A DNA stretch of 64,000 bases from Parcubacteria group bacterium (lineage in GTDB: Bacteria > Patescibacteriota > Minisyncoccia > Phycocordibacterales > CALRHW01), in NCBI GenBank assembly GCA_039740835.1, contig JBCLGW010000001.1, positions 27,640 to 91,639 of the forward strand. Reading direction: 5' to 3'. Within the stretch, counting starts at the first letter, position 1; each line of letters starts with the position of its first letter. Positions 14,287 through 46,681 of this stretch are shown here, piece after piece. The position numbers and the translations under genes were made by a program. The notes beneath the pieces were generated by a model that saw only the letters and a program-made list of their open reading frames with translations, ran no database searches and was not told the DNA's origin.

Positions 14287-15339
14287 TTGAAGAAAGTGTT
14301 TGGTGTGCTAAAATTAAAGTGTAATTTCCATATGTTGCATTTATCTAAAAAAATTATTCTAAATACACTCTTTGCCTTTTTCTTTTTGGGTAGTACAGTC
14401 GCGCTAGCACAAACACCACAGACAATGGGGGGGTTATCAACATTTCCAAAATATCCCAGGCCAAACGAGCTCGTGACTGTCCACCTAAACGACTACTCTA
14501 TAAACCTAAACGCAACGGAGGTCACTTGGTCACTAGACGGCAAAATACAGAAAAAAGGAATCGGTGAAAAACAATTTCAATTTACAGCTGGAGCTATTGG
14601 TAAAAAATCGGTCGTAAAAGCGTCAACAAATACTTACACCCTAACCCTCAACATTAATCCTGTCGGACTAGATATTTTCTGGCAGACACAGACCTACACA
14701 CCGCCATTTTACAAAGGTAAGGCATTGTTTTCATATCAAAGCGCCGTTGATTTTGTCGCGCTTCCGGTTTTCCTAAATTCAAGTGGTGTCCTGATAGATC
14801 CAAAAACTCTCATTTACACTTGGTCAAAAAATAATGCGGTGGCAGGCAATCTTTCTGGATACGGCAAAAACAGCATATCTTTAGTGGGTGGTGTATTAGC
14901 AAAGCCAATGACCATTGGCGTGAAAGTATCATCTATAGACGACACCCTAGAATCAGAAACGGAAATCTCTCTCACAGCAAATTCTCCACAAACAATATTG
15001 TACGAAAATCATCCACTATATGGCATTACCTATAATAAATCCTTACCGTATCAACTTAGTTTGGATGAAAAAGAAATTACTCTATCTGTCGCACCGTACT
15101 TTTTTGATGTGAATAGAAAAGACAAACCGACAATTTCTTATGTTTGGAAAATGAACGGAAAAGAAATACAAAATCTGGAAAAACCATTTTCACTAGTACT
15201 CAGAAAACCCGAGGGTGGGGGAGCTGGATCAGCTATACTTTCTTTGCTAATCACTCAGACAGAAAAAATGTTTCAGTTTGCCAACAGCTCCATTTCTATA
15301 TTTTTTAAGTCCGAAGAGGAAACACAAACAAACATATGA
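14287..15339 (+). CDS. Secreted hypothetical protein with Ig-like repeats within the T4SS-like cluster
   Basis: Signal peptide (..FFFLGSTVALAQ). No recognised family. The start may instead be the internal Met at 14332. Confidence 0.4.
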   Translation: MKKVFGVLKLKCNFHMLHLSKKIILNTLFAFFFLGSTVALAQTPQTMGGLSTFPKYPRPNELVTVHLNDYSINLNATEVTWSLDGKIQKKGIGEKQFQFTAGAIGKKSVVKASTNTYTLTLNINPVGLDIFWQTQTYTPPFYKGKALFSYQSAVDFVALPVFLNSSGVLIDPKTLIYTWSKNNAVAGNLSGYGKNSISLVGGVLAKPMTIGVKVSSIDDTLESETEISLTANSPQTILYENHPLYGITYNKSLPYQLSLDEKEITLSVAPYFFDVNRKDKPTISYVWKMNGKEIQNLEKPFSLVLRKPEGGGAGSAILSLLITQTEKMFQFANSSISIFFKSEEETQTNI

Positions 15340-15764
15340 TAAAAAGGTTTAGAAAAAATTTTGGATTTGTTTTTTTACTTCTGGCGTTTTCTGCTGTGTT
15401 TTTTGGTGGTGTAAATGTAAAAGTATCTACAGCTGAACATAACTATGTGCCTCTAGCTCCAATAACTGGGGTAGTAGAGGGCAGAAACGTCACCCTAAAC
15501 ACCTACCTACCTGCAATGTTTAAATTTTTGATCGGAGTGGCGGCTGTGCTTGCTGTTATTATGATCACTATCGGTGGTATTCAATATATGTCGACAGACG
15601 CTATATTCGAAAAAAGTGAGGGAAAGGAGCGCATAAGACGGGCTCTTGGCGGACTTTTTCTGGCTCTTGTTGCTTGGCTTGTACTACAAACAATAAACCC
15701 CAAACTACTGAATACCAATCTTAATATGCAAAATATGGACGCGGGAACAACCCAAACACCTTAA
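15336..15764 (+). CDS. TrbC/VirB2-type T4SS pilin-like protein
   Basis: Long signal peptide followed by two hydrophobic helices (FLIGVAAVLAVIMITIGGIQYM ... LGGLFLALVAWLVLQTINP). Size is 142 aa. The start overlaps the previous stop by 4 nt. Confidence 0.45.
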   Translation: MIKRFRKNFGFVFLLLAFSAVFFGGVNVKVSTAEHNYVPLAPITGVVEGRNVTLNTYLPAMFKFLIGVAAVLAVIMITIGGIQYMSTDAIFEKSEGKERIRRALGGLFLALVAWLVLQTINPKLLNTNLNMQNMDAGTTQTP

Positions 15765-17782: not shown

Positions 17783-18112
17783 CTATATTATTTGGGCTTT
17801 TTTCATCAAACCCACGATTTCTTCTTTTTGTTTTTCAAAAGATAATGTCAGAGCTCCTTTTTTTGCCGAAAAAACGGCTTTGGCTGGTTTTTTTATATCA
17901 CTCAAATGTTCTCGGATTAAAGAGTATACTCTTCGGCGGATTCTGTTTCTATCTACTGCATTTTGGGCTACTTTTTTTGAAACAAGCACGGCATAAGAGT
18001 CTGTATTTGAGGGTAGAGCTCTAAGGGTAAAATAGGTTGAGTGGTACAAAGACCCTTGTAGTAGAATCGGTTTAAAAGAATCTTTTGAAATTCTTTTATG
18101 CTTTGGCAACAT
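17783..18112 (-). CDS. rnpA: Ribonuclease P protein component
   Basis: Basic protein with RNase P motif KKVAQNAVDRNRIRRRVYSLIRE. Located between rpmH and yidC. Confidence 0.7.
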   Translation of the reverse strand: MLPKHKRISKDSFKPILLQGSLYHSTYFTLRALPSNTDSYAVLVSKKVAQNAVDRNRIRRRVYSLIREHLSDIKKPAKAVFSAKKGALTLSFEKQKEEIVGLMKKAQII

Positions 18113-18121
18113 AAAATATGG

Positions 18122-18256
18122 CTATACAGAGAGCTTTGTTCGGCCTTTTCGTCGGCGTCGAGTGATGACCTTTTTACCCCCAGCTGTTCTAGACCGCACT
18201 AGAAAACCGTGAGATCTTGCTCGTTTTCGTTTTTTTGGTTGGTATGTTTGAGACAT
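18122..18256 (-). CDS. rpmH: 50S ribosomal protein L34
   Basis: Manual translation gives [44 protein letters not shown] (44 aa), which is canonical L34. It was missed by the ORF track because it is under 60 aa. Confidence 0.8.
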
Positions 18257-18412
18257 ATAGGGGGATTATATATGAGTAATCTGATTATTTCAAGGTTTTT
18301 GGTGCTATTAGACTTATTCACAGTATATACACAGAGTATCAACATAATTAGGTATTTACCGCAAGTATAAAACAACTCATCATCATATATAATAAACCTT
18401 AAGAAATTTAAA

Positions 18413-19774
18413 ATGCAGACTCAAATTATGGATAGTAAAAAAATGTGGGATAGTGTACTTGTGGATGTTGAAATAAATGTTTCAAAAGCAAATTTTAATA
18501 CGTGGTTTAAAGATACCTTTATTTACAAAATAGAAGAGGGAATTGTTTACTTGAGCGTACCAAATTCATTTGTAAAACAGTGGTTGATGGATAAATATCA
18601 CGCCTTTATACTCAAATCTCTACGAAATCTCTCAGAAAACATCCGATCTTTGGATTATATAGTCAACAAGGGGGATATAAAGAAAAAAGAGGATGAAATG
18701 CCTAAAAATATTACTGCGAGTACAAACGAGCTACCACTTTCAGAGTTTTATATAAACAAAGATGATAATTTAAATCCGAAATACACATTTGATTCTTTTG
18801 TTATCGGCCCATTCAACGAGCTAGCTCACGCTGCATCTCAAGCAATAATCAAAAAACCGGGGATTATTTACAACCCGCTTTTTATTTACGGAAATACTGG
18901 CCACGGAAAAACTCATCTCATCCAAGCGATAGGTAACACAATGAAGCACAACTACCCCGACAGAAAAATCTGTTATGTAACTTCAGAAAAATTTACTGTT
19001 GACTACGTAAACTCTGTTCAAAACAACAAAGTAAATCAGTTTAAGGATAAATATAGAAAATACGACATTCTAATAATGGACGACATCCAGTTTTTCTCAA
19101 AAAAAGAAAGCACACAGGAGGAGCTTTTCCATCTTTTCAACCACCTATACGACAACAACAAACAAATTATATTCTCTTCTGATAAACACCCCAACTACAT
19201 TCAAAACCTAGAAGAGCGCCTCAAATCACGCTTTGGGGCTGGAATGATAGTGGACATACCAGCGCCTAATCACGAATCTAGGGTGGCTATATTAAACGCT
19301 AAACTAAAGTTTCATAACTTTAATCTTCAGCCAGAGATAGTAGACTTTCTAGCTGGGACGCTCTCCTCCAACATCCGCGAGCTTGAGGGTGCTTTAAACA
19401 GCATCATCTGCCAAGCAGAACTTAAACAAAAAGATCTCACACTAGCTGATGTAAAAAATCTCCTTAAAAACAGTGTCAAACCAAAGAAAAATCTTTCTCC
19501 AAAGGAAATTATAAAAATAATCGCTGATTTTTATAATATAAACGAGGAAAGTATATACGAAAAAACTCGTAAAAAAGAAATTATCAAACCTCGCCAACTA
19601 GCAATGTATGTGTTGAGAGAAGATTTCAATATATCTTACCCATCAATAGGGGAGAAAATGGGGGGGAGAGATCACACCACAGTTATTCATTCCTGTGAAA
19701 AGATAAAAAAGGATTTGAAATATGATAATCTTTTAATGCAGGAGTTAAACCAAATCCGGTCGATGTTGGTTTGA
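18413..19774 (+). CDS. dnaA: Chromosomal replication initiator DnaA
   Basis: AAA+ Walker A motif GNTGHGKTHL, sensor motifs, and a C-terminal DnaA-box-binding domain (..KPRQLAMYVLRE..). Gene order is rpmH, dnaA, dnaN. Confidence 0.9.
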   Translation: MQTQIMDSKKMWDSVLVDVEINVSKANFNTWFKDTFIYKIEEGIVYLSVPNSFVKQWLMDKYHAFILKSLRNLSENIRSLDYIVNKGDIKKKEDEMPKNITASTNELPLSEFYINKDDNLNPKYTFDSFVIGPFNELAHAASQAIIKKPGIIYNPLFIYGNTGHGKTHLIQAIGNTMKHNYPDRKICYVTSEKFTVDYVNSVQNNKVNQFKDKYRKYDILIMDDIQFFSKKESTQEELFHLFNHLYDNNKQIIFSSDKHPNYIQNLEERLKSRFGAGMIVDIPAPNHESRVAILNAKLKFHNFNLQPEIVDFLAGTLSSNIRELEGALNSIICQAELKQKDLTLADVKNLLKNSVKPKKNLSPKEIIKIIADFYNINEESIYEKTRKKEIIKPRQLAMYVLREDFNISYPSIGEKMGGRDHTTVIHSCEKIKKDLKYDNLLMQELNQIRSMLV

Positions 19775-20004
19775 CCTTTTTAGTGCTGTGTATATGATGT
19801 GAATAAAGTGCAATAGATGTGGATAAGATTGGGGTGTTTTAAAAAAGAGATTACTTATAAACAAACCGCCAAAAATAATCAACACCTTTTTAAACTTAAA
19901 CCCATAAAAAACGTTGCAAAATATAGTTAAATAAAGTTATCCAGTTATCAACACCCCTAGTATTAATAATAAATTTATATATAGATATATATTAAATACT
20001 GCTT
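19775..20004. promoter_or_regulatory. Putative oriC: DnaA boxes plus an AT-rich unwinding element between dnaA and dnaN
   Basis: Perfect DnaA box TGTGGATAA at 19818-19826. Near-consensus boxes TTATCCAGT at 19935-19943 and TTATCAACA at 19944-19952. An AT-rich stretch lies at 19958-19995. An additional box-like TTATTCACA sits upstream of dnaA near 18313. Confidence 0.6.
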
Positions 20005-21108
20005 ATGAAAGTAGAATGCCTAACAGAAAAATTAAGTAAAAGTATTTTACAAGCAGAAAGAATTGCTGGTAAAACACACTCACTTCCTATTATTAATTGT
20101 GTGTTTATACAAGCTAAGGATAATTCTTTAATAATACGGTCAACAAATCTTGATTTGGGTGTTGAGATAATAATTCCTGTAAAAGTTTTTGAGGAAGGGG
20201 TGGTGGTGGTGCCGGCGCAAATTTTAGGGGTTTTTCTATCTAGTCTTTTAGGTGATAAAACAGTGACACTACACACAGAGGATAATGTTTTATTAGTTTC
20301 ATCTCAAAAAAACTCAACAAAAATAAAAACTCATATAAATGAAGATTTCCCAACAATACCAGTAGTTTCTAAAGAAAAAAGTTTTAATATAAAAGCATTA
20401 GATTTTATAAAAGGTTTGAAGTCTGTGTGGTATAGCTCGTCTGTTTCAAGTATAAAGTCAGAACTAGCTAGTGTTTATGTTTACTATGATGAGGATGATA
20501 ATTTTGTTTTTGTGGCAACAGATTCATTTAGACTTGCGGAGAAAAAAATAAAAGTAAATAAAATAAAAGATTTTGACCATATTTTAATACCATTTAAAAA
20601 TATTCCAGAAATAATAAGGGTTCTTGAGGGGGCAACAAACGACGTGAGTATTTGTTTAGAAAAAAACCAAATATCTTTTAGTTATGAAAATATTTATCTA
20701 ACATCTCGTGTTATTGATGGTGTTTTCCCAGATTACAAACAAATTATTCCAAAAACACAAACAACAGAAGTTGTTATGTTGAAACAAGATTTTATAAATT
20801 CTTTAAAAATCGCAAACATTTTCTCAAATAAATTAAATCAAATAAATATAAAAGCCGTACCTTCTAAGAAAATATTTGAATTACAAACAAAAAACTCGGA
20901 TGTTGGAGAAAATATAAACGAAATAGACGCTATTTTTAGTGGGGAAGACGTAGATATAAACTTTAATTATAAGTATATAGTTGATTGTTTACAGTCTATA
21001 GATTCAGATAGTATCTCTTTAAATTTCAACGGCATAAGTAAACCAATGGTTATTCGTGGTGTTTCTGATAAATCATTTCTTTATCTTGTGATGCCTATGA
21101 ATAAATAG
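20005..21108 (+). CDS. dnaN: DNA polymerase III beta sliding clamp
   Basis: 367 aa, three-domain clamp. N-terminus MKVECLTEKL.. It sits directly after dnaA and oriC. Confidence 0.85.
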   Translation: MKVECLTEKLSKSILQAERIAGKTHSLPIINCVFIQAKDNSLIIRSTNLDLGVEIIIPVKVFEEGVVVVPAQILGVFLSSLLGDKTVTLHTEDNVLLVSSQKNSTKIKTHINEDFPTIPVVSKEKSFNIKALDFIKGLKSVWYSSSVSSIKSELASVYVYYDEDDNFVFVATDSFRLAEKKIKVNKIKDFDHILIPFKNIPEIIRVLEGATNDVSICLEKNQISFSYENIYLTSRVIDGVFPDYKQIIPKTQTTEVVMLKQDFINSLKIANIFSNKLNQINIKAVPSKKIFELQTKNSDVGENINEIDAIFSGEDVDINFNYKYIVDCLQSIDSDSISLNFNGISKPMVIRGVSDKSFLYLVMPMNK

Positions 21109-21112
21109 GTTT

Positions 21113-21367
21113 ATGGAAAATATTTCATCTTTTTTAGAAAAATTTAAGAAATTTCTATCCTCTAGTGTTTCAGTAAAACAATCTGTCGTGGAGGTTTTAA
21201 AAGATGTTTTAGGTGTTGATGTTGATACTAAATCTATCAATATAAAAAATAGTTTTGTTTTTATAAAATGTTCCCCAGCGCTAAAAAACGCAATCTTTTT
21301 AAAAAAGAAATTAATTATTGATGGTATCAACCAAAAAACTAAAGCCAGTATCTCTGATATTCGCTAG
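21113..21367 (+). CDS. Small DUF721/DciA-like protein, a putative replicative-helicase loader
   Basis: 84 aa immediately downstream of dnaN. The C-terminal segment FVFIKCSPALKNAIFLKKKLIIDGINQ resembles the DciA/DUF721 core. This assignment is tentative. Confidence 0.3.
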   Translation: MENISSFLEKFKKFLSSSVSVKQSVVEVLKDVLGVDVDTKSINIKNSFVFIKCSPALKNAIFLKKKLIIDGINQKTKASISDIR

Positions 21368-23898
21368 GGTTGGTTGTTTATTGTAAAAATAGACCTCACC
21401 TCACCTCTATTAAAAATAGAGTCATAGAGCACCACTCGCATCTCGTTTTCACCGTTTTTTATGTATTCCAAATCTTTTGGAATAAAAGAGAAAGAAAAAG
21501 TAGACGACACACTACTTCCAACAAAGTTTTCATTTATATAATACTCAGCTTTTGTGATTGGGTAGTTTGCAGAATATTCAATAGAAGATGTTATTTTTTT
21601 ATCAGACTCGTAAACTTGATTGTTTTGTGGTTCTTCAATAAACACCACCGGTTTGTTTTCTGGTATGTGTACATCGTCGAATTCTGTTGGGATACTACTT
21701 TCATCTACTGGACGGATGTTGTTTTGTATAAGCCATTTTTGTACACCATACTCCCAACTTATAAATTGAGAATCATCCTCAGGTCTTAATGGTGGGTCTT
21801 CTCTCGGACTCTCTTTTTTAATCCAGTATAAAATATCGTGTGTCTCTCCAGTGACTATTTCAGATGTTGTCTCTATTGGTGTGTACTCTGTCGCAAGTTT
21901 TCCTGACACAGTGTCTATAAAATAACTTGTACCACCCTGCCATTTTCCACGAAGCACTGGTTTTAGATTAAAAGAATTTTCTACTTCTGGTTTTTTGAAA
22001 AATTCTTTAGGATAATTTTCCAGAGCTTTTTTCATCACCTGATTCCAAAATGGGGCGATGATATATCCAGCCACTTTTTTATTCATTGGAGTATTATTGT
22101 TGTTTCCAGCCCAAGCACCAATAACAAGACTTGGTGTATAGCCGATTATCCAAGCATCTTTATAGTTGTTGGTGGTACCGGTTTTTACAGCCACATCTCT
22201 GCCGGATATATAGAGTGGTGAATTAACTCCAAAAGTAGGCGCACGTGCATCGTTGTCTGATAGAATGTTTGAAATTTGTAGAGCAATATTTTCTGGTAAA
22301 ACATTTGTTGAGGTGTTTGTTGGTTTTTCTACTACAGTTTCGTTTTTTGTGCGGATCTCAAGTATTGGCTGGTATGGATATCGCATACCGTTGTTTGCAA
22401 AAACACCATAAGCGCTAGTCATATCAAGTAAAGAAACCTCTCCACCTCCCAAAACAAGCGTTAGGCCGTACTGACCGGCATTTGTGAGACTTTGTATACC
22501 CATATCTTTTGCTAGTCGTAGCACATCATTTATGCCCGCTAGATAGAGTGTTTTTACTGCGGGAATGTTTATGGATTGTCCCAAAGCATTTCTAATTGAT
22601 ATTGGTCCACGAAAACTACTGTCGTAATTTGTTGGAGAGTAGCACCCCTCATCACTTGTTTCGTTTTCTGGTGGGCAAGTGGTAGAAAACTGAGTTTTAA
22701 CATCAAAAAGCATTGTGTCTGGCGTATAACCTTTCATAAAAGCTGTTGCGTACGCAAAAGGTTTAAATGCAGACCCTGGCTGTCTTTTTGCTAGAGCGAC
22801 ATTGAAGTTACCGTCTATTTCTTTATCAAAATAATCACGAGAGCCAACCAAAGAAAGTATCTCTCCATTTTTTGGATCAATAGCTACCACCGCAATGTTT
22901 TCTGCTTGGTATTCTTTTGCGTTTTTTAGAGCAAAAATCTTTGCTTGCTTCTCCAACATTTCTTGGAGCTTGTAATCTAGGGTGGTTATTACTTTTAGAC
23001 CACCCTCTTCTAGTACTTGCGCGCCGTATTTTTTCTCAAGCAAGTCTTTTACAAACATTACAAAATGCGGGGCTTTTATGCCGAGACTTTGTTGGTCTTT
23101 AAAAATAACTTTTTCATCTTTTGCTTGGTTGTACTCAACTTCAGAAATATAATTGTTTTTTAACATTTCTTGCAAGACAAGATTTTTTCGGAAATCCAAA
23201 CCCTCGCGATTTTTGTACGGAGAATAAAAACTCGGGGCTTTTGGTAGAGCGGCTAGGTATGCCGACTCTGCGATAGTCACATCAGACGCGCGTTTACCAA
23301 AAAAGGCGTTGCTAGCTTCTTCTATACCATAAAGACTACCCCCATAAGGGATTTCATTTAAATACATTCCCAAAATTTCTTGTTTTGTAAGAATTTTTTC
23401 TAGTTTTATAGCCAACACCCACTCCTTTGCTTTTCTAGTGATACTTTTTTCTCTAGTGAGTAGTGAGTTTTTTACAACCTGCTGGGTGATAGTAGACCCG
23501 CCCTGACTAAACTTCCGGGTTTGGAGGTTTGCAAACGCCGCTCTGATAAGAGAAGACGGTTTTACTCCTTTATGGCTATAAAATTCTTTGTCTTCTATGG
23601 AGATTGTTGCATTTTTTATGTGTTTGGAAATACTATCAAATGGCACAACCGTTCTTTTTATGTTTTGATACACATCGTAGAGTAAAACCTCCCCAGTGCG
23701 GTCATATATTTTTGTAGATTGAGAAACCTTTCTTTCCTGAAATGAGTCTAGGGTGGGGAGTTGAAATGTTGAAATCCAAAAAATAAAACCAGAAACAAAC
23801 AAAAGGAATGCCCCAACGCTAAAAAGGAAGATGTTTTTTAAACCAGTTTTTCTCGACCATTTTTTAATAAATGAAATACGTTTTTTCATAATGTCCAT
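21364..23898 (-). CDS. Class A penicillin-binding protein (bifunctional transglycosylase/transpeptidase, PBP1A-type) with a C-terminal extension
   Basis: N-terminal transmembrane segment. GT51 motifs IEDKEFYSHKG and RQPGSAFKP. Transpeptidase SxxK (GSAFK), SxN and KTG motifs. 844 aa. Confidence 0.85.
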   Translation of the reverse strand: MDIMKKRISFIKKWSRKTGLKNIFLFSVGAFLLFVSGFIFWISTFQLPTLDSFQERKVSQSTKIYDRTGEVLLYDVYQNIKRTVVPFDSISKHIKNATISIEDKEFYSHKGVKPSSLIRAAFANLQTRKFSQGGSTITQQVVKNSLLTREKSITRKAKEWVLAIKLEKILTKQEILGMYLNEIPYGGSLYGIEEASNAFFGKRASDVTIAESAYLAALPKAPSFYSPYKNREGLDFRKNLVLQEMLKNNYISEVEYNQAKDEKVIFKDQQSLGIKAPHFVMFVKDLLEKKYGAQVLEEGGLKVITTLDYKLQEMLEKQAKIFALKNAKEYQAENIAVVAIDPKNGEILSLVGSRDYFDKEIDGNFNVALAKRQPGSAFKPFAYATAFMKGYTPDTMLFDVKTQFSTTCPPENETSDEGCYSPTNYDSSFRGPISIRNALGQSINIPAVKTLYLAGINDVLRLAKDMGIQSLTNAGQYGLTLVLGGGEVSLLDMTSAYGVFANNGMRYPYQPILEIRTKNETVVEKPTNTSTNVLPENIALQISNILSDNDARAPTFGVNSPLYISGRDVAVKTGTTNNYKDAWIIGYTPSLVIGAWAGNNNNTPMNKKVAGYIIAPFWNQVMKKALENYPKEFFKKPEVENSFNLKPVLRGKWQGGTSYFIDTVSGKLATEYTPIETTSEIVTGETHDILYWIKKESPREDPPLRPEDDSQFISWEYGVQKWLIQNNIRPVDESSIPTEFDDVHIPENKPVVFIEEPQNNQVYESDKKITSSIEYSANYPITKAEYYINENFVGSSVSSTFSFSFIPKDLEYIKNGENEMRVVLYDSIFNRGEVRSIFTINNQP

Positions 23899-23923
23899 TT
23901 TATCATATTGGGGGCTACATTAT

Positions 23924-25187
23924 ATGAATACCAAAAACAATGCAAATATGATACATTTACGGAATATGAAGAACCCGTTTAAGAAATCTTTTGTGAGTGT
24001 GGATAAGGATAAAATCAACGAAATTCTCAATCGTGGCGTTGAAGATGTTTTTGTAAAAGAGAGCTTGGAAAACAAGCTTCTTTCTGGGAGGTCACTGCGA
24101 GTAAAACTCGGCTTTGATCCTACTGGAGAAAATATTCACATAGGTAGAGCAGTAGCGCTCCGCAAACTCCGCGCTTTCCAAGACCTCGGGCACACCATTG
24201 TATTTATTGCCGGTGATTTTACCGCACAAATAGGAGACCCCTCAGACAAGCTAGCCAAACGCCCAATGATTTCAAAAGAAGTTATCAAAAAAAATCTCAC
24301 CCACTACAAAACACAGATCGGCAAAATAATAGATTTGAAAAAAGCTGAGTTTCATTACAACAGCAAGTGGCTTTCAAAACTCAACTTTCAAGAAATATCA
24401 GAGCTTGCTGAAAGTTTTTCTGTCCAGCAAATGTCGGCGCGACGCAATTTTAAAGACCGGTTTGAGGGGGGGGGAGGAAGTGTCTTTGCGAGAGTTTTTG
24501 TACCCACTGATGCAGGGCTACGACTCTGTGATGGTAAAAGCCGATGTTGAGATTGGTGGTTTTGATCAGCTTTTCAATCTAAAAGCTGGGCGCATCATTC
24601 AAAAACATTTTAAAATGCCTGAGCAAGACGTACTCACTACGCAAATGCTCGAAGGCACCGACGGCAGAAAAATGTCTACTAGCTGGGGTAATGTGATAAA
24701 TATTGTTGATGAACCAAATGATATGTTTGGGAAAATTATGTCTATCAGAGACAACCTTATTTCAAAATATTTTTTGCTTTGTACAAATAAGCCAGAAGCA
24801 GAAATAAATGCATTAGAGAAAGCTTTTGAAATGGGCTCAAATCCTCGTGATGCAAAAATGAAACTCGCTGTAGCGATAGTATCTTCTTACTACGGAGAAA
24901 AAACGGCACTCAAAGCAAGGCAATCTTTTGTAGATACTTTTCAAAAAGGAGCTGTGCCCGAGGACGTGCTTACTATAAGTCTTGCACCAAACGCCGTGCT
25001 TGTCGACGCGCTTTTATCAAACGGTATTGTAAAATCAAAATCAGATTTTCGCCGTCTTATAGAAGATGGTGCTGTGCAAAATATGGATGATGGTACAAAG
25101 ATTTCTGACCCACTCTTTGTTGTTTGGAAGGACGCAGTGATAAAGGTGGGCAAGCGTCGGTTTATAAAAATTAAAATAGAGTCATAA
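23924..25187 (+). CDS. tyrS: Tyrosine--tRNA ligase, disrupted by a +1 frameshift in a 9-G homopolymer at 24466-24474
   Basis: Class I HIGH-type motif GFDPTGENIHIGRAV. The KMSKS-type motif is KMSTS. The C-terminal S4 domain is present. The reading frame switches between ORF 23831-24550 and ORF 24405-25187 exactly at the G run. With 8 G the product would read ...DRFEGGEEVSLREFLYPLMQGYD, matching the TyrRS consensus. Confidence 0.7.
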
Positions 25188-25189
25188 AC

Positions 25190-25216
25190 AAAAAAGGACC
25201 CGAGGGTCCTTTTTTG
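25190..25216. terminator. Bidirectional rho-independent terminator
   Basis: Hairpin GGACCCGAGGGTCC flanked by an A run and a T run (AAAAAAGGACCCGAGGGTCCTTTTTT). Confidence 0.6.
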
Positions 25217-25360
25217 TTACGCTGAGTCGCTGTCACTACTGCTGTCACTATCTGAATCATCCTCCTCCTCTTCTTCATCCTCTTCGCTATCTGGTGAGCT
25301 TGGACTTACTTCAGTAGTTTCTTTATCATCTGCAGACACATTTGCATCATCATTGTCCAT
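25217..25360 (-). CDS. Small (47 aa) highly acidic Ser/Asp/Glu-rich hypothetical protein
   Basis: Manual translation gives MDNDDANVSADDKETTEVSPSSPDSEEDEEEEEDDSDSDSSSDSDSA. It lies downstream of ruvC on the same strand and is followed by a terminator. It could be non-coding. Confidence 0.25.
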   Translation of the reverse strand: MDNDDANVSADDKETTEVSPSSPDSEEDEEEEEDDSDSDSSSDSDSA

Positions 25361-25487: not shown

Positions 25488-26012
25488 TTAGAGAGGGAAT
25501 CTTTTTGTTGCAGTGTGGGTTAATGCTATAGCAATAGCGTCAAATTCATCGTCTACTGTTTTTTTAATAGGCATTTTAATGAGTCTTTGTACCATTTTTG
25601 TCACCTGATCTTTGGTGCTTCTGCCGTATCCAGTAACCGCCACCTTTATTGTAACGGGTTTGTATTCGTAGACAGAAAGTCCAGCTAGGGCGGACTCTGC
25701 AAGTATTACTCCGCGGGCCTCAGCCACCTTTATTGCTGTTTTTTTGTTGTCACCAAAAAAAAGTTCTTCTATTGCTAGGTCGTTGGGTTTAAATTTTTCT
25801 ATAATTTTTTTTATTTCGGTCGCAATGAGCCCCAGTCGCTCCGCATGCTTTGATTTTGGAGATGTTTTAAAACAAGCGGAGTAGATGAGTGTTTCTTTTT
25901 CTCCACCTACCTTTTCAACAACAGCAATACCCACTCGCTCATAACCAGGATCTATGCCGAGCACGAGAATATTTTTTTTATTCTGCATTTGTATAAATGT
26001 CTTGAACCTCAT
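25488..26012 (-). CDS. ruvC: Holliday junction resolvase RuvC
   Basis: N-terminus ILVLGIDPGYERVGIAVVE, which is the RuvC catalytic-Asp motif. 174 aa. Confidence 0.85.
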   Translation of the reverse strand: MRFKTFIQMQNKKNILVLGIDPGYERVGIAVVEKVGGEKETLIYSACFKTSPKSKHAERLGLIATEIKKIIEKFKPNDLAIEELFFGDNKKTAIKVAEARGVILAESALAGLSVYEYKPVTIKVAVTGYGRSTKDQVTKMVQRLIKMPIKKTVDDEFDAIAIALTHTATKRFPL

Positions 26013-26505
26013 CGCTTTCTTCGAGTTCAGAAATTAGTGCCCCAAGCGTTTGAGAATCTTCTTCTGATATCGGTGTTGTTGTTTTTGGTACCCAACCACC
26101 AATGTTTTTTTCAAAAGCCCAAGTAGCCGAGCCCATACCAGCCAAAGCGAAACCGTGGTTTGAAAGTATGTGTTTTATTTCTTGTGCCGCTTTGTTGCGA
26201 TTGTCGGTAAGTGCTTCGATGACGAGCGCACAACCTCCCGGACCATAGCTTTCATAGGTAATAGATTCTAAATCTGCAGACAAAGTCGCCGCTTTTTTTA
26301 TTGCTCTTTCAATGTTGTCGCTCGGCATATTTTCTGCGCGAGCTTTTTCTATCGCAGATTTTAGTCCGGGCGTGTTTACATTTCCACCAGATTTTTTTGC
26401 TTCTTGAGTAATGAGTTTTGCATATTTTGCAAAAACTTTACTTTTTTGCCCGTCAGTTTTTGCTTTCTGTCTTTTGATTTGTGACCACTTATTATGTCCA
26501 GACAT
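25978..26505 (-). CDS. yebC: YebC/PmpR-family transcriptional regulator, short
   Basis: N-terminus MSGHNKWSQIKRQKAKTDGQKSKVFAKYAK is the YebC signature. Ordered yebC, ruvC as in many bacteria. Confidence 0.8.
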   Translation of the reverse strand: MSGHNKWSQIKRQKAKTDGQKSKVFAKYAKLITQEAKKSGGNVNTPGLKSAIEKARAENMPSDNIERAIKKAATLSADLESITYESYGPGGCALVIEALTDNRNKAAQEIKHILSNHGFALAGMGSATWAFEKNIGGWVPKTTTPISEEDSQTLGALISELEESDEVQDIYTNAE

Positions 26506-27955: not shown

Positions 27956-29653
27956 TTACATGTCTTCATCTAGGTCAAGAACACGCTTCAACTCTTCTAT
28001 AGACGTCATTCCTTGGAGAACCTTTAGGATTCCGTCTTGTTTCATATCAAGCATATGTTGCGGCTCGGCCGCTTTTTTTATTTCTCGTTCGCTTGGATTT
28101 TCTTGAACAATTTTTTCTATATTTGCATCTGTTTTTATCGCTTCATACACTCCAATGCGTCCTTTGTAGCCAGTAAAGTTACATTTCAAACACCCTTTTG
28201 CTTCCCACATTGTGTTTATATCTATGCCGTCTAGATATGTTTTGTCTACAATACCACCAGTAATTTTTACGACATATTTTTTTTCTTGCTCCGTTTGTTC
28301 TTTTTTTGTTTTGCAGTCATTACAAAGTTTACGAATGAGACGTTGTGCTATACAAATACTGAGAGCAGAAACTATCACTTTTGGATTTACACCAAGGTCT
28401 ATGAGGCGAGGGAAGGTACCAGCTGCATTATTGGTGTGTAGAGTAGAGAACACCAAATGACCTGTGAGCGCAGAGTTTATCGCGATTTCTGCTGTTTCAC
28501 TATCGCGGATTTCTCCCACCATTATGACGTCTGGATCTTGTCGCAGAGCGGAGCGCAGACCTTCTAGAAAAGTATAACCCTCATTAGTTTGTGTTTGCAC
28601 GATGCCTGGTAAATGATATTCAATAGGATTTTCAATAGTAATTATTTTTATTTCTGATGAATGAATTTTTTTCAGGAAAGCATAAAGAGTGGTGGTTTTT
28701 CCAGAGCCAGTCGGACCAGTGGTAAGTATCATTCCGTTTGGTTTTTGTAGCTCATGCTCTAGTACTTTTAGTAGTCGTGGGTGGATACCGAGCTCTTCTA
28801 GGGGCACAGATATGGCTTTTGGGTTGAGAACTCGAAGCACCAGAGAGTCGTTGTAAGCTCCGGGCAAAAGAGAAGTACGGATTTCTATTTCGTCGTCATT
28901 TATTTTTATACTAAAACGTCCGTCTTGTGCCTTTCCTTTTATATTTAGTTTTAAATTTGAAAGAAGCTTGAGGCGAGAAAGTAAAAGACGGTATGTTTCG
29001 TGGTCAAATTTCAAAATATCTGTCAGCACACCGTCGAGTCGATACCGTAAACGCACATAGCCCTCTTCTGGCTCTAGATGAAGATCAGAAGCTCTGTTGG
29101 CCAGTGCTCCAGCAAGCATTGTTTCAAGTAGGTGAGATATGCGATATGTTTTTTTTGAGGTCAGGACCTCCGCAAGTATTTTTTTTAACTCTTCTAGTGT
29201 TGAAACTTTTTCTAAAAGCTCAACGATACCATCACTTGAAATATCAAGTGCGCCACCCTTTGTTTCCATAGACATTGAAAGGTCTTTGTATCGCCCCCAA
29301 ACTTTTTTTAGACTTTCTGGTGAGACGAGGTAGAGGATTGGCGAGTAGCCTCTTTTTTCCAAGCTGGCGAGAGCGTCTTTTGTTTCTTGTGTTGAAGGAG
29401 AGAGGAGTCCGATGTGGATTTTTTTATCTACGATATTAAATATAGCTATTTGTGCTTTTAGGGCGTCTTCTTCTTTTATCACGCGCAAAGCATCTATGTT
29501 TATAGGTATGGTGGATAAATCAAGATATGGAATGCCATATTTTTTTGAAAGTGCTAGTGTCAGACCTTCTGCCTCTTTTCTTTTTAGCTCTTCTACGCGG
29601 GCGTTTTGTTTTTCTTCGTCAAATTGAACCATAGATAGATTATATACTATCAT
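27956..29653 (-). CDS. pilB: Type IV pilus assembly / type II secretion ATPase, PilB/GspE family
   Basis: Walker A motif GPTGSGKTTT. Asp and His boxes. Tetracysteine motif CNDCK...C. N-terminal GSPII-type domain. 565 aa. Confidence 0.8.
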   Translation of the reverse strand: MIVYNLSMVQFDEEKQNARVEELKRKEAEGLTLALSKKYGIPYLDLSTIPINIDALRVIKEEDALKAQIAIFNIVDKKIHIGLLSPSTQETKDALASLEKRGYSPILYLVSPESLKKVWGRYKDLSMSMETKGGALDISSDGIVELLEKVSTLEELKKILAEVLTSKKTYRISHLLETMLAGALANRASDLHLEPEEGYVRLRYRLDGVLTDILKFDHETYRLLLSRLKLLSNLKLNIKGKAQDGRFSIKINDDEIEIRTSLLPGAYNDSLVLRVLNPKAISVPLEELGIHPRLLKVLEHELQKPNGMILTTGPTGSGKTTTLYAFLKKIHSSEIKIITIENPIEYHLPGIVQTQTNEGYTFLEGLRSALRQDPDVIMVGEIRDSETAEIAINSALTGHLVFSTLHTNNAAGTFPRLIDLGVNPKVIVSALSICIAQRLIRKLCNDCKTKKEQTEQEKKYVVKITGGIVDKTYLDGIDINTMWEAKGCLKCNFTGYKGRIGVYEAIKTDANIEKIVQENPSEREIKKAAEPQHMLDMKQDGILKVLQGMTSIEELKRVLDLDEDM

Positions 29654-39768: not shown

Positions 39769-41248
39769 TTTTGCTAAATCTATAGCCAGTTTGTTTGTTA
39801 AAGATAGTCTTCTCAAGACTGTTTTGATATGAAGCCAAACACGGATCTATTACTTTTTTAATATCTTCTAACTTTTTCAACTCCGGCTCCACATCAATAC
39901 CTTTGCCCTTTAAAAACCTTACTATCATTATTGCATGAGCCCACGCATCTCGTTCTTCTGATACATAAGTATCCATTGTTTTTTGAAAAGCAGCACTTTT
40001 TATAGGATAAAAACGTATTTGCGATTTCGTTTTAGCAAGCATAGATGGTAGCTCATCCCTCCCTGATTGAGAAATTTTAGTATCGGGCAGACCAAGTGTT
40101 TCCACATACTTAGCAAGTTCAAAATAGGCGTTGGGAATATTTATCACACCCTCTTGATTTGTGGGAATCTCTGTACCATTTTTATCCAAACATTCGATTC
40201 CAGATTTTTCTAATTGCTCCCAAATCTTGTCAGGTTCTTCATAGTCTTCACTATCTTTTGGAAGTTCGAGTTTAGAAATAAGTGTCGTAACAGTCTCATA
40301 AATTCCTTCAAACCCTGCTCTACCTTGATCAGAAGTATGGTAATACTTATTTTGCCAAGCATGAGCAACTTCGTGGAGAAGAGAAAGTATACCGCCAGTT
40401 TTTTTTAAATCTCCATAATTTACTATCTTATGCGACGGTCTCATTGCAAAACCCTCTGGGTCAGATTCTCCCATTTTATAATTTTTTAGATCTGCAACTT
40501 CTTTTTGCTTGTAACTTTTTCCAGTAATACTTTCGGCATCAGGTTGAAAAAAAAGCTCTTTATCCATAGCTCGCGGTACAAATTTGCAATTGGATGGCAA
40601 AAGAGCATTCAGGTCTAGAGTAATTCCATTTTTAATATCTTGAATTACCAACGAAGATTCAGCGTAATTTGTATTCCCTGGTCTGTCTATGGTATTAGAA
40701 ACTCTTTCGTAAATAAGATTTTGATTTCCATCTTGTTTTGACGCGTTAGTAGTCGTTTGTTCCACAACGCCATTTAATCTTTCGTTCTCCTCAACCCCCC
40801 CTTCAAAAGTTAACCTTTCTCTCCCATGAAGAGAGTCTTTTAATATTTCATTTCTTTGATTTTTGTATTCTTTTAGTGATAGTTCTTCAACTTCGTCAGT
40901 AAATAATTTGTGCCGTTCTGTACTCTCTGACGCCATTATCCAATTAGCTGAACCAACATTTGGGACACCGTCAATTTCCGGCTTTCTCAAACCATCGGGA
41001 ATTAGACCTCGAAAAAATTCTCCGGCCTCAGTGCTTAATTGTTTGGCATCTTGCTGTGCGTCAGCAAGTCTCTCAAAATCTTTTTGAATCTCTTTTGTAT
41101 CAAAAAGTTTACGTAAAATTTGGTCAAGAGCATTAAGCACCTTTTCTCTTAATTGTTCTCTGAATGCCTTACCACTCTCCGCTTTTATCATTTCAGAAGT
41201 TTCTGGTGAATTAGGGAATCTTTCGTTCATATTATGATTATAACTCAT
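39758..41248 (-). CDS. Hypothetical 496-aa protein with a HExxHxxQ motif (putative zincin-like metallopeptidase, DUF4157-like)
   Basis: No signal peptide. The only recognisable element is LLHEVAHAWQN, an HExxH followed by Gln. The remainder is Glu/Lys-rich. Confidence 0.4.
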   Translation of the reverse strand: MSYNHNMNERFPNSPETSEMIKAESGKAFREQLREKVLNALDQILRKLFDTKEIQKDFERLADAQQDAKQLSTEAGEFFRGLIPDGLRKPEIDGVPNVGSANWIMASESTERHKLFTDEVEELSLKEYKNQRNEILKDSLHGRERLTFEGGVEENERLNGVVEQTTTNASKQDGNQNLIYERVSNTIDRPGNTNYAESSLVIQDIKNGITLDLNALLPSNCKFVPRAMDKELFFQPDAESITGKSYKQKEVADLKNYKMGESDPEGFAMRPSHKIVNYGDLKKTGGILSLLHEVAHAWQNKYYHTSDQGRAGFEGIYETVTTLISKLELPKDSEDYEEPDKIWEQLEKSGIECLDKNGTEIPTNQEGVINIPNAYFELAKYVETLGLPDTKISQSGRDELPSMLAKTKSQIRFYPIKSAAFQKTMDTYVSEERDAWAHAIMIVRFLKGKGIDVEPELKKLEDIKKVIDPCLASYQNSLEKTIFNKQTGYRFSKIPK

Positions 41249-45125: not shown

Positions 45126-45185
45126 TTTTTTTGTAGGGGAAAACCTACTGCGTTTGGGTGGCGAATAGTATATAATTATTCTTAC

Positions 45186-46142
45186 ATGAGTAAGAATTTC
45201 TTTGATTTTTTTCCTCCGCCACATTTTTTGGAAATGCCGTCTTTCGGTTTTTCTATTTCTGATACGAGTTTGCGTTTTGTTGAGCTCCGACCGCACGAAG
45301 GTTCTTTTGTTGTGGGGGACTATGCCGAGCGACCGCTACCGCTAGGAGCAGTAGACGCTGGCTATATTCACAAGCCAGAGCAGGTAGTGGAGGTTCTAAA
45401 GTCGCTAAAAAAAGAATACAACCTAAAATTTGTGCGAGTGACTTTGCCAGAAGAAAAAGCTTTTGTCTACAAAACACAGATACCAGCTGTCGCGCCAGAA
45501 GAAATGCGCAGTAGTGTTGAGTTTACGCTCGAGGGAAATGTGCCAGTCACTTCTGCTGATTCTGTTTTTGATTTTACTGTTATGCCACAAAAAAAATCTG
45601 ATCCATTGCATGTAGATGTTGCGGTATGTGTTGTGCCAAACAAAGTTGTAGATGCATATCTGTCACTTTTTTCTTCGGCTGGACTTGTCGTGACAGCTTT
45701 TGGTCTAGAGTCTCAGGCGGTCGTACATTCTATTATTGAGCAAGGGGACACAAACACTTATCTAATTTTGAATTTAGATAAATATAAAACTGGTTTTTAT
45801 ATAGCCACAGGCAATGCCGTGCATTTTACATCTACAATGTCTATTACCACAGACTCTTTGCCAGAATTGGCGAGGGAGATAAATAAAATATATTGGCATG
45901 AATATGGAGAGAAAAAAGAAAAGGGAAGCTCTATAAACAAAATACTTTTGTGTGGCGATGGCGCTGACAAAAATGGAGTGAGGGAATATATTTTCAACAA
46001 CCTAGGCATAGAGGCGGAAATAGCAAATGTTTGGAAAAATGTTTTTGTTTTTGATATTTATGTTCCAGATATTTCGTACAAAGATTCTGTTAGCTTTGCG
46101 GGAGCGATAGGTCTGGCACTGCCTTCTTTTTTACAAATATGA
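45186..46142 (+). CDS. pilM: Type IV pilus assembly protein PilM (actin-like ATPase fold)
   Basis: N-terminus ..FGFSISDTSLRFVEL... followed by the PilM-like domain order. It is followed by pilN-like and pilO-like genes. Confidence 0.6.
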   Translation: MSKNFFDFFPPPHFLEMPSFGFSISDTSLRFVELRPHEGSFVVGDYAERPLPLGAVDAGYIHKPEQVVEVLKSLKKEYNLKFVRVTLPEEKAFVYKTQIPAVAPEEMRSSVEFTLEGNVPVTSADSVFDFTVMPQKKSDPLHVDVAVCVVPNKVVDAYLSLFSSAGLVVTAFGLESQAVVHSIIEQGDTNTYLILNLDKYKTGFYIATGNAVHFTSTMSITTDSLPELAREINKIYWHEYGEKKEKGSSINKILLCGDGADKNGVREYIFNNLGIEAEIANVWKNVFVFDIYVPDISYKDSVSFAGAIGLALPSFLQI

Positions 46143-46681
46143 CAAATTTACTTCCACAAGACTATCAAAAAAAGATAGCCAAAGAATACAAATACAGAAA
46201 AGAGGTAGTGGCTCTTTTGGGTCTCGCGGTGACGATTTTTGTTTCCGCTAGTTTTCTCGTGCCATCTTTTGTGCTTTCAAAAGTAAAGCTTGGAGAGATG
46301 ACGACGAGAGTGGAGCAGGTGCGCAAAGTAAATGAAGGTGTGGCAAAAAAACATTCATCCAGCACAATACTCAAAGATGCAGAAGAAAAAATCAGATTGC
46401 TTGCGGACACAAAAGGTCAAGAGTCTATAGATAAACTGGTGGGAATTATTACAGACGAAAAATCTGATACGATAAAAATAAAGTCTATTTCGTATGCTCA
46501 TGCACAGGGGGCGCCGTCTACAATATCTGTTGTTGGGCTTGCAAAAGACAGAGAGAGTTTGACTCAGTTTTTAAAGAAAATGCAAAGTCAGAGTCTTTTT
46601 GCGTCGGTCGACCTGCCAGTTTCAAATTTTGCAAAGGGTAAAGACATTACTTTTTCAATGTCGATATCTGGAACATTTTAA
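46139..46681 (+). CDS. pilN: Type IV pilus assembly protein PilN-like
   Basis: Short cytoplasmic N-terminus, a single transmembrane helix (VALLGLAVTIFVSASFLVPSFVL), and a periplasmic domain. 4-nt overlap with pilM. Confidence 0.5.
   Translation: MTNLLPQDYQKKIAKEYKYRKEVVALLGLAVTIFVSASFLVPSFVLSKVKLGEMTTRVEQVRKVNEGVAKKHSSSTILKDAEEKIRLLADTKGQESIDKLVGIITDEKSDTIKIKSISYAHAQGAPSTISVVGLAKDRESLTQFLKKMQSQSLFASVDLPVSNFAKGKDITFSMSISGTF

Follow-up and report, generated by a model that had tools for sequence, protein, structure and literature searches.

A frameshift at a nine-G run in tyrS of a Patescibacteria genome is most likely not a real feature

How can tyrS, an essential gene, be written in two reading frames? 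In the 64-kb stretch of DNA analysed here (the window), a run of nine G at 24466-24474 is the point at which the frame switches between the two halves of the gene for tyrosyl-tRNA synthetase (TyrRS). Where an aminoacyl-tRNA synthetase gene is present in single copy, a frameshift in it would be lethal or nearly so, and a truly non-functional tyrS allele is therefore not possible as the consensus of a population. The nine-G consensus thus represents either an error or a real insertion, the latter being bypassed or else masked by another source of TyrRS. We examined the anatomy of the gene, its counterparts in relatives, and the signals around the run.

Anatomy of the split gene and its one-base repair

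As written, tyrS is not one uninterrupted frame and needs a +1 shift at the nine-G run. Two overlapping ORFs cross the run, at 23831..24550 and, in the next frame, at 24405..25187. The first of these frames holds the HIGH-type motif HIGR, and the second holds EFLYPLMQGYD, KMSTS and the C-terminal part. When the repaired protein described below was searched against the window with tblastn, residues 1-169 matched 23966-24472 in frame 2 at 100% identity and residues 125-406 matched 24339-25184 in frame 3, the two pieces meeting at the G run. This bore out the claim of the initial annotation that tyrS is frameshifted within this homopolymer, and the anatomy given there proved accurate throughout. 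The start of the gene at MKNPF lines up with the starts of two orthologues (P0001 and P0003). The start called in the source record, MNTKNN, gives a truncated product of 208 aa. The features of the gene are as follows.

23966..24473, + strand: N-terminal part of tyrS, residues 1-169 of the repaired protein (tblastn; matches to PF00579 and TIGR00234)
24137-24148, + strand: HIGH-type motif HIGR, in the N-terminal part
24212-24244, + strand: GDFTAQIGDPS, in the N-terminal part
24466..24474, + strand: nine-G run and frame switch; with eight G the gene is in one frame, with GAG GGG GGG GAG reading E-G-G-E
24475..25187, + strand: C-terminal part of tyrS in the +1 frame, including the putative C-terminal RNA-binding region
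24492-24524, + strand: EFLYPLMQGYD, tyrosine-binding motif, in the C-terminal part
24548..24550, + strand: stop in the unshifted frame, reached when the run is translated as nine G, after the unrelated tail GGSVFARVFVPTDAGLRLCDGKSRC
24669-24683, + strand: KMSTS, in the C-terminal part
25185-25187, + strand: stop codon of tyrS, in the downstream frame

Removal of one G yielded a 406-aa protein reading ...DRFEGGEEVSLREFLYPLMQGYD... across the site. The repaired protein scored 327.3 bits against TIGR00234 (tyrS; cut-off 113.8), covering profile positions 4-405 of 406, and 230 bits against PF00579 (tRNA-synt_1b); matches to the structures 6bqy, 6byq and 1h3e in the PDB had E values of 1e-73 to 1e-77. 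It aligned without gaps across the site with 6bqy and 6byq as well as with 18 orthologues, and HIGR, KMSTS and EFLYPLMQGYD aligned with their counterparts in the orthologues and in these two structures. The class I signature motifs (of the HIGH and KMSKS types) and the tyrosine-binding segment EF.YP..Q.YD are thus all present in the repaired protein. The alignment with 6byq reached residue 404 of 406 and spanned the C-terminal domain of that structure; the Pfam S4 domain (PF01479) was not reported at E ≤ 0.001. Judged by these profile and structure matches, the repaired gene would encode an ordinary, Thermus-type bacterial TyrRS, and the earlier proposal that eight G restore a protein fitting the TyrRS consensus held up on its reading across the site, its TIGR00234 score and its ungapped fit to the structures. 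No second tyrS was found in the 64-kb window, where all other tblastn matches had E > 1, in agreement with what had been noted before.

The gene in relatives and its neighbourhood

The nearest proteins are tyrosine-tRNA ligases from uncultured Paceibacterota/Patescibacteria genomes (72-81% identity), the 15 closest of them full length. Among related loci in genome and metagenome collections, tyrS lies in one frame and gives a single tblastn piece in 166 of 166; a few pieces that end early run on in frame to the normal ...GKKxF.K.. C-terminus. At the site of the G run the relatives read E/D-K/R/A/N-G-E-E and the closest relatives (74-81% identity) E-K/R-G-E-E, the closest of all (L161, 81% identity) having GAA AAG GGG GAA GAG. 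The G run at the site was at most five in all 50 loci in which a regular expression located the site exactly, the remainder of the 166 being covered by the tblastn frame check. The 919 kb of related loci contain one G or C run of at least eight, a ten-C run in a distant relative (L159, 3997-4006), ~800 bases downstream of tyrS.

Since the frameshift is found in none of the 166 relatives and the G run at the site does not exceed five, a conserved programmed recoding site is excluded; the relatives have the gene in one frame and lack a long G run. The same observation bears on the readings in which nine G are real and the break is an evolved device, whether a programmed +1 frameshift, programmed slippage, a phase switch, or a split enzyme that restarts at GTG 24480. 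A programmed signal would be expected to be conserved, and non-conservation largely refutes these readings, which we regard as barely credible.

We then compared the two halves of the gene. The mean identity of the window protein to the 18 orthologues was 75.2% upstream of the run and 73.5% downstream, compared to 74.3% and 71.1%, respectively, for the intact orthologues against each other. From otherwise invariant columns the window protein departed at 0 of 76 positions upstream and 2 of 90 downstream, and the intact genes at 0-4 positions upstream and 0-3 downstream. By this comparison, the downstream half of tyrS is not decaying and shows no sign of relaxed selection. The frameshift is accordingly very recent, or bypassed, or not real.

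A freshly inactivated pseudogene with nine real G would leave tyrosine charging to a second tyrS or to a host or partner cell. A second copy is conceivable beyond the 64 kb in view, and Patescibacteria are generally regarded as dependent on partner cells. However, no bacterium is known to import an aminoacyl-tRNA synthetase from such a cell. The downstream half carries no further stops, indels or excess changes at invariant positions, so that any inactivation could only be extremely recent, and the relatives retain an intact tyrS at the same syntenic position. We consider a pseudogene very improbable.

The species is assembled once in public collections. The truncated TyrRS product (P0121) and the adjacent YebC (P0122) are both singleton clusters, and the protein collection holds no intact version of the window TyrRS. 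Searches of the gene-position index for exact matches to RuvC, YebC and the truncated TyrRS product gave none, and scans of genome and metagenome contigs for an independent assembly of the species gave only relatives at ≤70% identity. Being a singleton, the species offers no second assembly with a run of eight G.

The gene order around tyrS is rnpA, dnaA, dnaN, PBP1A, tyrS, a small acidic ORF, ruvC, yebC, ruvB and a T2SS-type ATPase, and the neighbouring genes of tyrS all have complete domain coverage. The closest relatives share the order PBP1A, tyrS, small acidic ORF, ruvC, yebC, ruvB. tyrS lies ~4.7 kb from dnaA (region 17783-23898), and the order rnpA, dnaA, dnaN, PBP1A, tyrS is that of the related locus L162; on the basis of this proximity and shared order, the replication origin region is probably within the window. 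The window also has genes for type IV pilus/secretion components at scattered places (45126-46681, 15309-15764, 27956-29653), namely PilM, PilN, a T4SS-type pilin and a T2SS-E ATPase.

Immediately downstream of tyrS are a hairpin and a small, extremely acidic ORF that is convergent with tyrS. Acidic ORFs of 38-41 aa lie between tyrS and ruvC in relatives, with no Pfam matches on record.

25187..25218, no strand assigned: hairpin terminator consisting of an A-run, GGACCC-GA-GGGTCC and a T-run (fold -20 kcal/mol, z = -6.8)
25217-25360, - strand: acidic ORF of 47 aa (MDNDDANVSADDKETTEV...EEDEEEEEDDSDSDSSSDSDSA)
25978-26505, - strand: YebC/TACO1-family protein, 175 aa
L161 4082-4207, L163 7271-7390, L165 3744-3863 and L166 3825-3941: acidic ORF in relatives

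The hairpin would serve as a predicted two-way terminator for tyrS and the convergent acidic ORF. It is supported by folding and was not listed in the consensus terminator scan; equivalent hairpins follow tyrS in L161, L163 and L166. The acidic ORF is conserved in position and composition. The YebC/TACO1-family protein is 175-176 aa long in relatives, and its best matched stretch in the window covers only positions 1-55 of the 160-position profile of the second and third domains. In this lineage YebC/TACO1 seems to be shortened.

Error, bypass or device at the nine-G run

Among the G and C runs of the window (39% G+C), the nine-G run stands first in length, ahead of three G7 and one C7, and is the only one of at least eight in the 64 kb. 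It is the window's single most error-prone site, and the only broken gene in the window, tyrS, is broken at this longest run. We counted homopolymers of at least seven A or T and at least six G or C. The ~130 others in the window, some two dozen A8 or T8 among them, lie in intergenic DNA or within ORFs that are intact. Where ORFs on the same strand overlap elsewhere (TsaE/PolA, methyltransferase/PAP2, Mur ligase/RuvA and PilM/PilN), the two members of the pair are distinct genes. A general homopolymer problem in the assembly was rejected on these two grounds.

Gly-Gly is repeatedly written GGG GGG in this genome, for example in FEGGVEE at 40795-40801, giving runs of G6-G7 in intact genes (12991, 14427, 19660, 40795, 63151 and others). 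Eight G encoding E-G-G-E would therefore be natural for the genome. Four G7 or C7 runs occur in the 64-kb window versus 12 in the 919 kb of related loci, and the lineage seems unusually tolerant of G runs. The reliability of short-read platforms drops at 8-mers (PMC11140927), and read-level homopolymer accuracy of Nanopore R10.4 varies at lengths of 8-9, especially for C (PMC9262707); a run of G read from the opposite strand is a run of C. Bioinformatic methods in general also create artefacts at homopolymer tracts (PMC8808543).

We next looked for signals that could support recoding at the run. No stop or slow codon is present at the shift position, and the original frame stays open for 25 more codons, to 24548-24550. 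Gly codons GGG (14%) and GGA (28%) are ordinary rather than rare in the window. No stimulatory RNA structure was detected when 24420-24560 (141 nt) was folded against shuffles (z = +0.89). Rfam detected neither a T-box nor any other known RNA element close to tyrS; its only matches in the window were seven tRNAs, all away from tyrS, and the window contains no gene for tRNA-Gly or tRNA-Tyr. Programmed +1 ribosomal frameshifting of the prfB type was rejected for lack of a conserved shift site, a slow codon or stimulatory RNA. Programmed transcriptional slippage, as in dnaX of Thermus and in IS elements, was rejected because the run is of G rather than of ~9 or more A or T, and is not conserved.

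Two other observations could be taken to favour an evolved device. In GGGGGGGGGAGGAAGTG, a Shine-Dalgarno-like GGAGG formed from the end of the run stands two bases before the in-frame GTG 24480 of the downstream frame, and G tracts of at least eight are the classic switches of phase variation in Campylobacter and Bordetella (PMC8808543). The GGAGG-GTG arrangement is missing in the relatives, and stimulatory structure is lacking. A distance of two bases is too short for normal initiation, and restarting there would split the enzyme inside its catalytic domain, just before the tyrosine-binding motif. A phase-variable contingency locus was likewise rejected: tyrS is an essential housekeeping gene, unlike the known contingency genes, and the 64 kb hold a single G or C tract of at least eight.

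We infer that the ninth G is probably a homopolymer-length error of sequencing or assembly, and that the true run is G8 in an ordinary, intact tyrS. One base would have been miscounted at G8 when this Patescibacteria (Paceibacteria-like) genome was sequenced or assembled from a metagenome; the gene itself would have eight G, as GAG GGG GGG GAG for E-G-G-E, and encode an intact, single-copy bacterial tyrosyl-tRNA synthetase. The locus has what is looked for in such an artefact, in that a one-base repair gives a colinear, ungapped, full-length gene, the change is not shared with relatives, and the sequence downstream has not decayed. We favour an error because it needs a miscount of one base and nothing else, while a bypassed insertion or a masked one each needs an unusual and unsupported extra assumption. 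Of the two origins between which the initial annotation had not chosen, sequencing or assembly error on the one hand and transcriptional or translational slippage on the other, the former is thus the one favoured here. Two considerations weigh against an artefact. The rest of the window is free of homopolymer errors and the assembly is otherwise accurate, so that an artefact must be specific to the nine-G site; and G8-9 runs are genuine mutational hot spots for indels.

The second consideration leads to a real one-base insertion, recent in origin, in a hypermutable G8 tract, with partial restoration of the frame making it tolerable. We judge this reading unlikely. No evolved signal would be involved: unprogrammed frameshifting would supply enough full-length TyrRS for a slow-growing bacterium with a small genome, the likeliest route being ribosomal +1 re-pairing of tRNA-Gly on GGG-G and a less likely one the skipping of one G by RNA polymerase. 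At three successive codons of the nine-G run a Gly tRNA could re-pair perfectly in the +1 frame, and low-level +1 slippage of ribosomes on a G run is possible, with precedents (PMC5009743, PMC3812077). In E. coli, frameshifts in G and C repeats can be bypassed enough to yield functional protein (PMC3812077). The downstream frame is fully open and conserved, as it would be if still in use or if the insertion were very recent, and the clean homopolymers in the remaining assembly fit a real insertion as well. However, none of the 166 relatives has the frameshift; the shift position lacks a slow or stop codon, with the stop of the original frame 25 codons on and ordinary Gly codons; and the site has no RNA structure. 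The yield of unprogrammed frameshifting, very low in the case of thymidine kinase (PMC5009743), would impose a heavy cost on an essential enzyme, and a single back-mutation in the hypermutable tract would at once restore tyrS.

The polymerase route meets a further difficulty, since repair here requires a one-base deletion and slippage insertions were absent from G or C runs in transcriptome-wide data (PMC5574713). In the E. coli and Buchnera transcriptomes, every insertion within a homopolymer fell in a run of A or T, runs of G and C were considered not to be slippage-prone, and the frame was restored in no case (PMC5574713). Transcriptional slippage at the nine-G run, one of the routes raised in the initial annotation, is specifically disfavoured. 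That nine G are real and that the only TyrRS of the cell is made by unprogrammed +1 re-pairing or by slippage of RNA polymerase on poly-G seems to us quite unlikely.

Implications and comparison with known systems

The tyrS frameshift is most likely not a real feature. If the ninth G is an artefact, the proper annotation is an intact tyrS and not a pseudogene, and estimates of completeness or of metabolism for this genome should not treat tyrosine charging as missing. If nine G are real, rescue by decoding infidelity, as at the poly(A) tracts of endosymbionts, would extend to poly-G and to an essential synthetase in a candidate-phyla bacterium; decoding infidelity would then sustain an essential housekeeping enzyme in a lineage that is environmental and free-standing, not an insect endosymbiont.

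Frameshifted genes in insect endosymbionts are rescued by polymerase slippage at poly(A) tracts (discussed in PMC5574713). Those cases likewise combine a small genome, a homopolymer frameshift in a needed gene, and a conserved downstream frame, but their tracts are of A or T, ~9 or more in length, whereas the tract in the window is of G. Closer in the nature of the tract are thymidine kinase mutants of herpes simplex virus in which a run of seven G carries an indel (reviewed in PMC5009743); they share the G-run indel and a possible rescue by re-pairing. The thymidine kinase case was shown experimentally, with eukaryotic ribosomes and under drug selection; the tyrS studied here is an essential bacterial gene known from its DNA sequence. 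The poly-G/C contingency loci of Campylobacter and Bordetella (PMC8808543) also have a tract of 8-9 G in a low-G+C genome and switch frame by replication slippage. However, they are non-essential surface or modification genes with many tracts per genome, while the window has a single tract, in an essential synthetase.

The Thermus thermophilus-type TyrRS enzymes (1h3e, 6bqy, 6byq) have their motif set in common with the repaired protein, and the gene in the window differs from them in lying in two frames. Homopolymer-length assembly errors (PMC9262707), which polishing and IDEEL-type checks are meant to deal with, resemble the locus in each of four respects: a one-base change, a split into overlapping ORFs, a repair that restores full length, and absence of the change from relatives. 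In unpolished long-read assemblies such indels are general, whereas the window has one isolated break.
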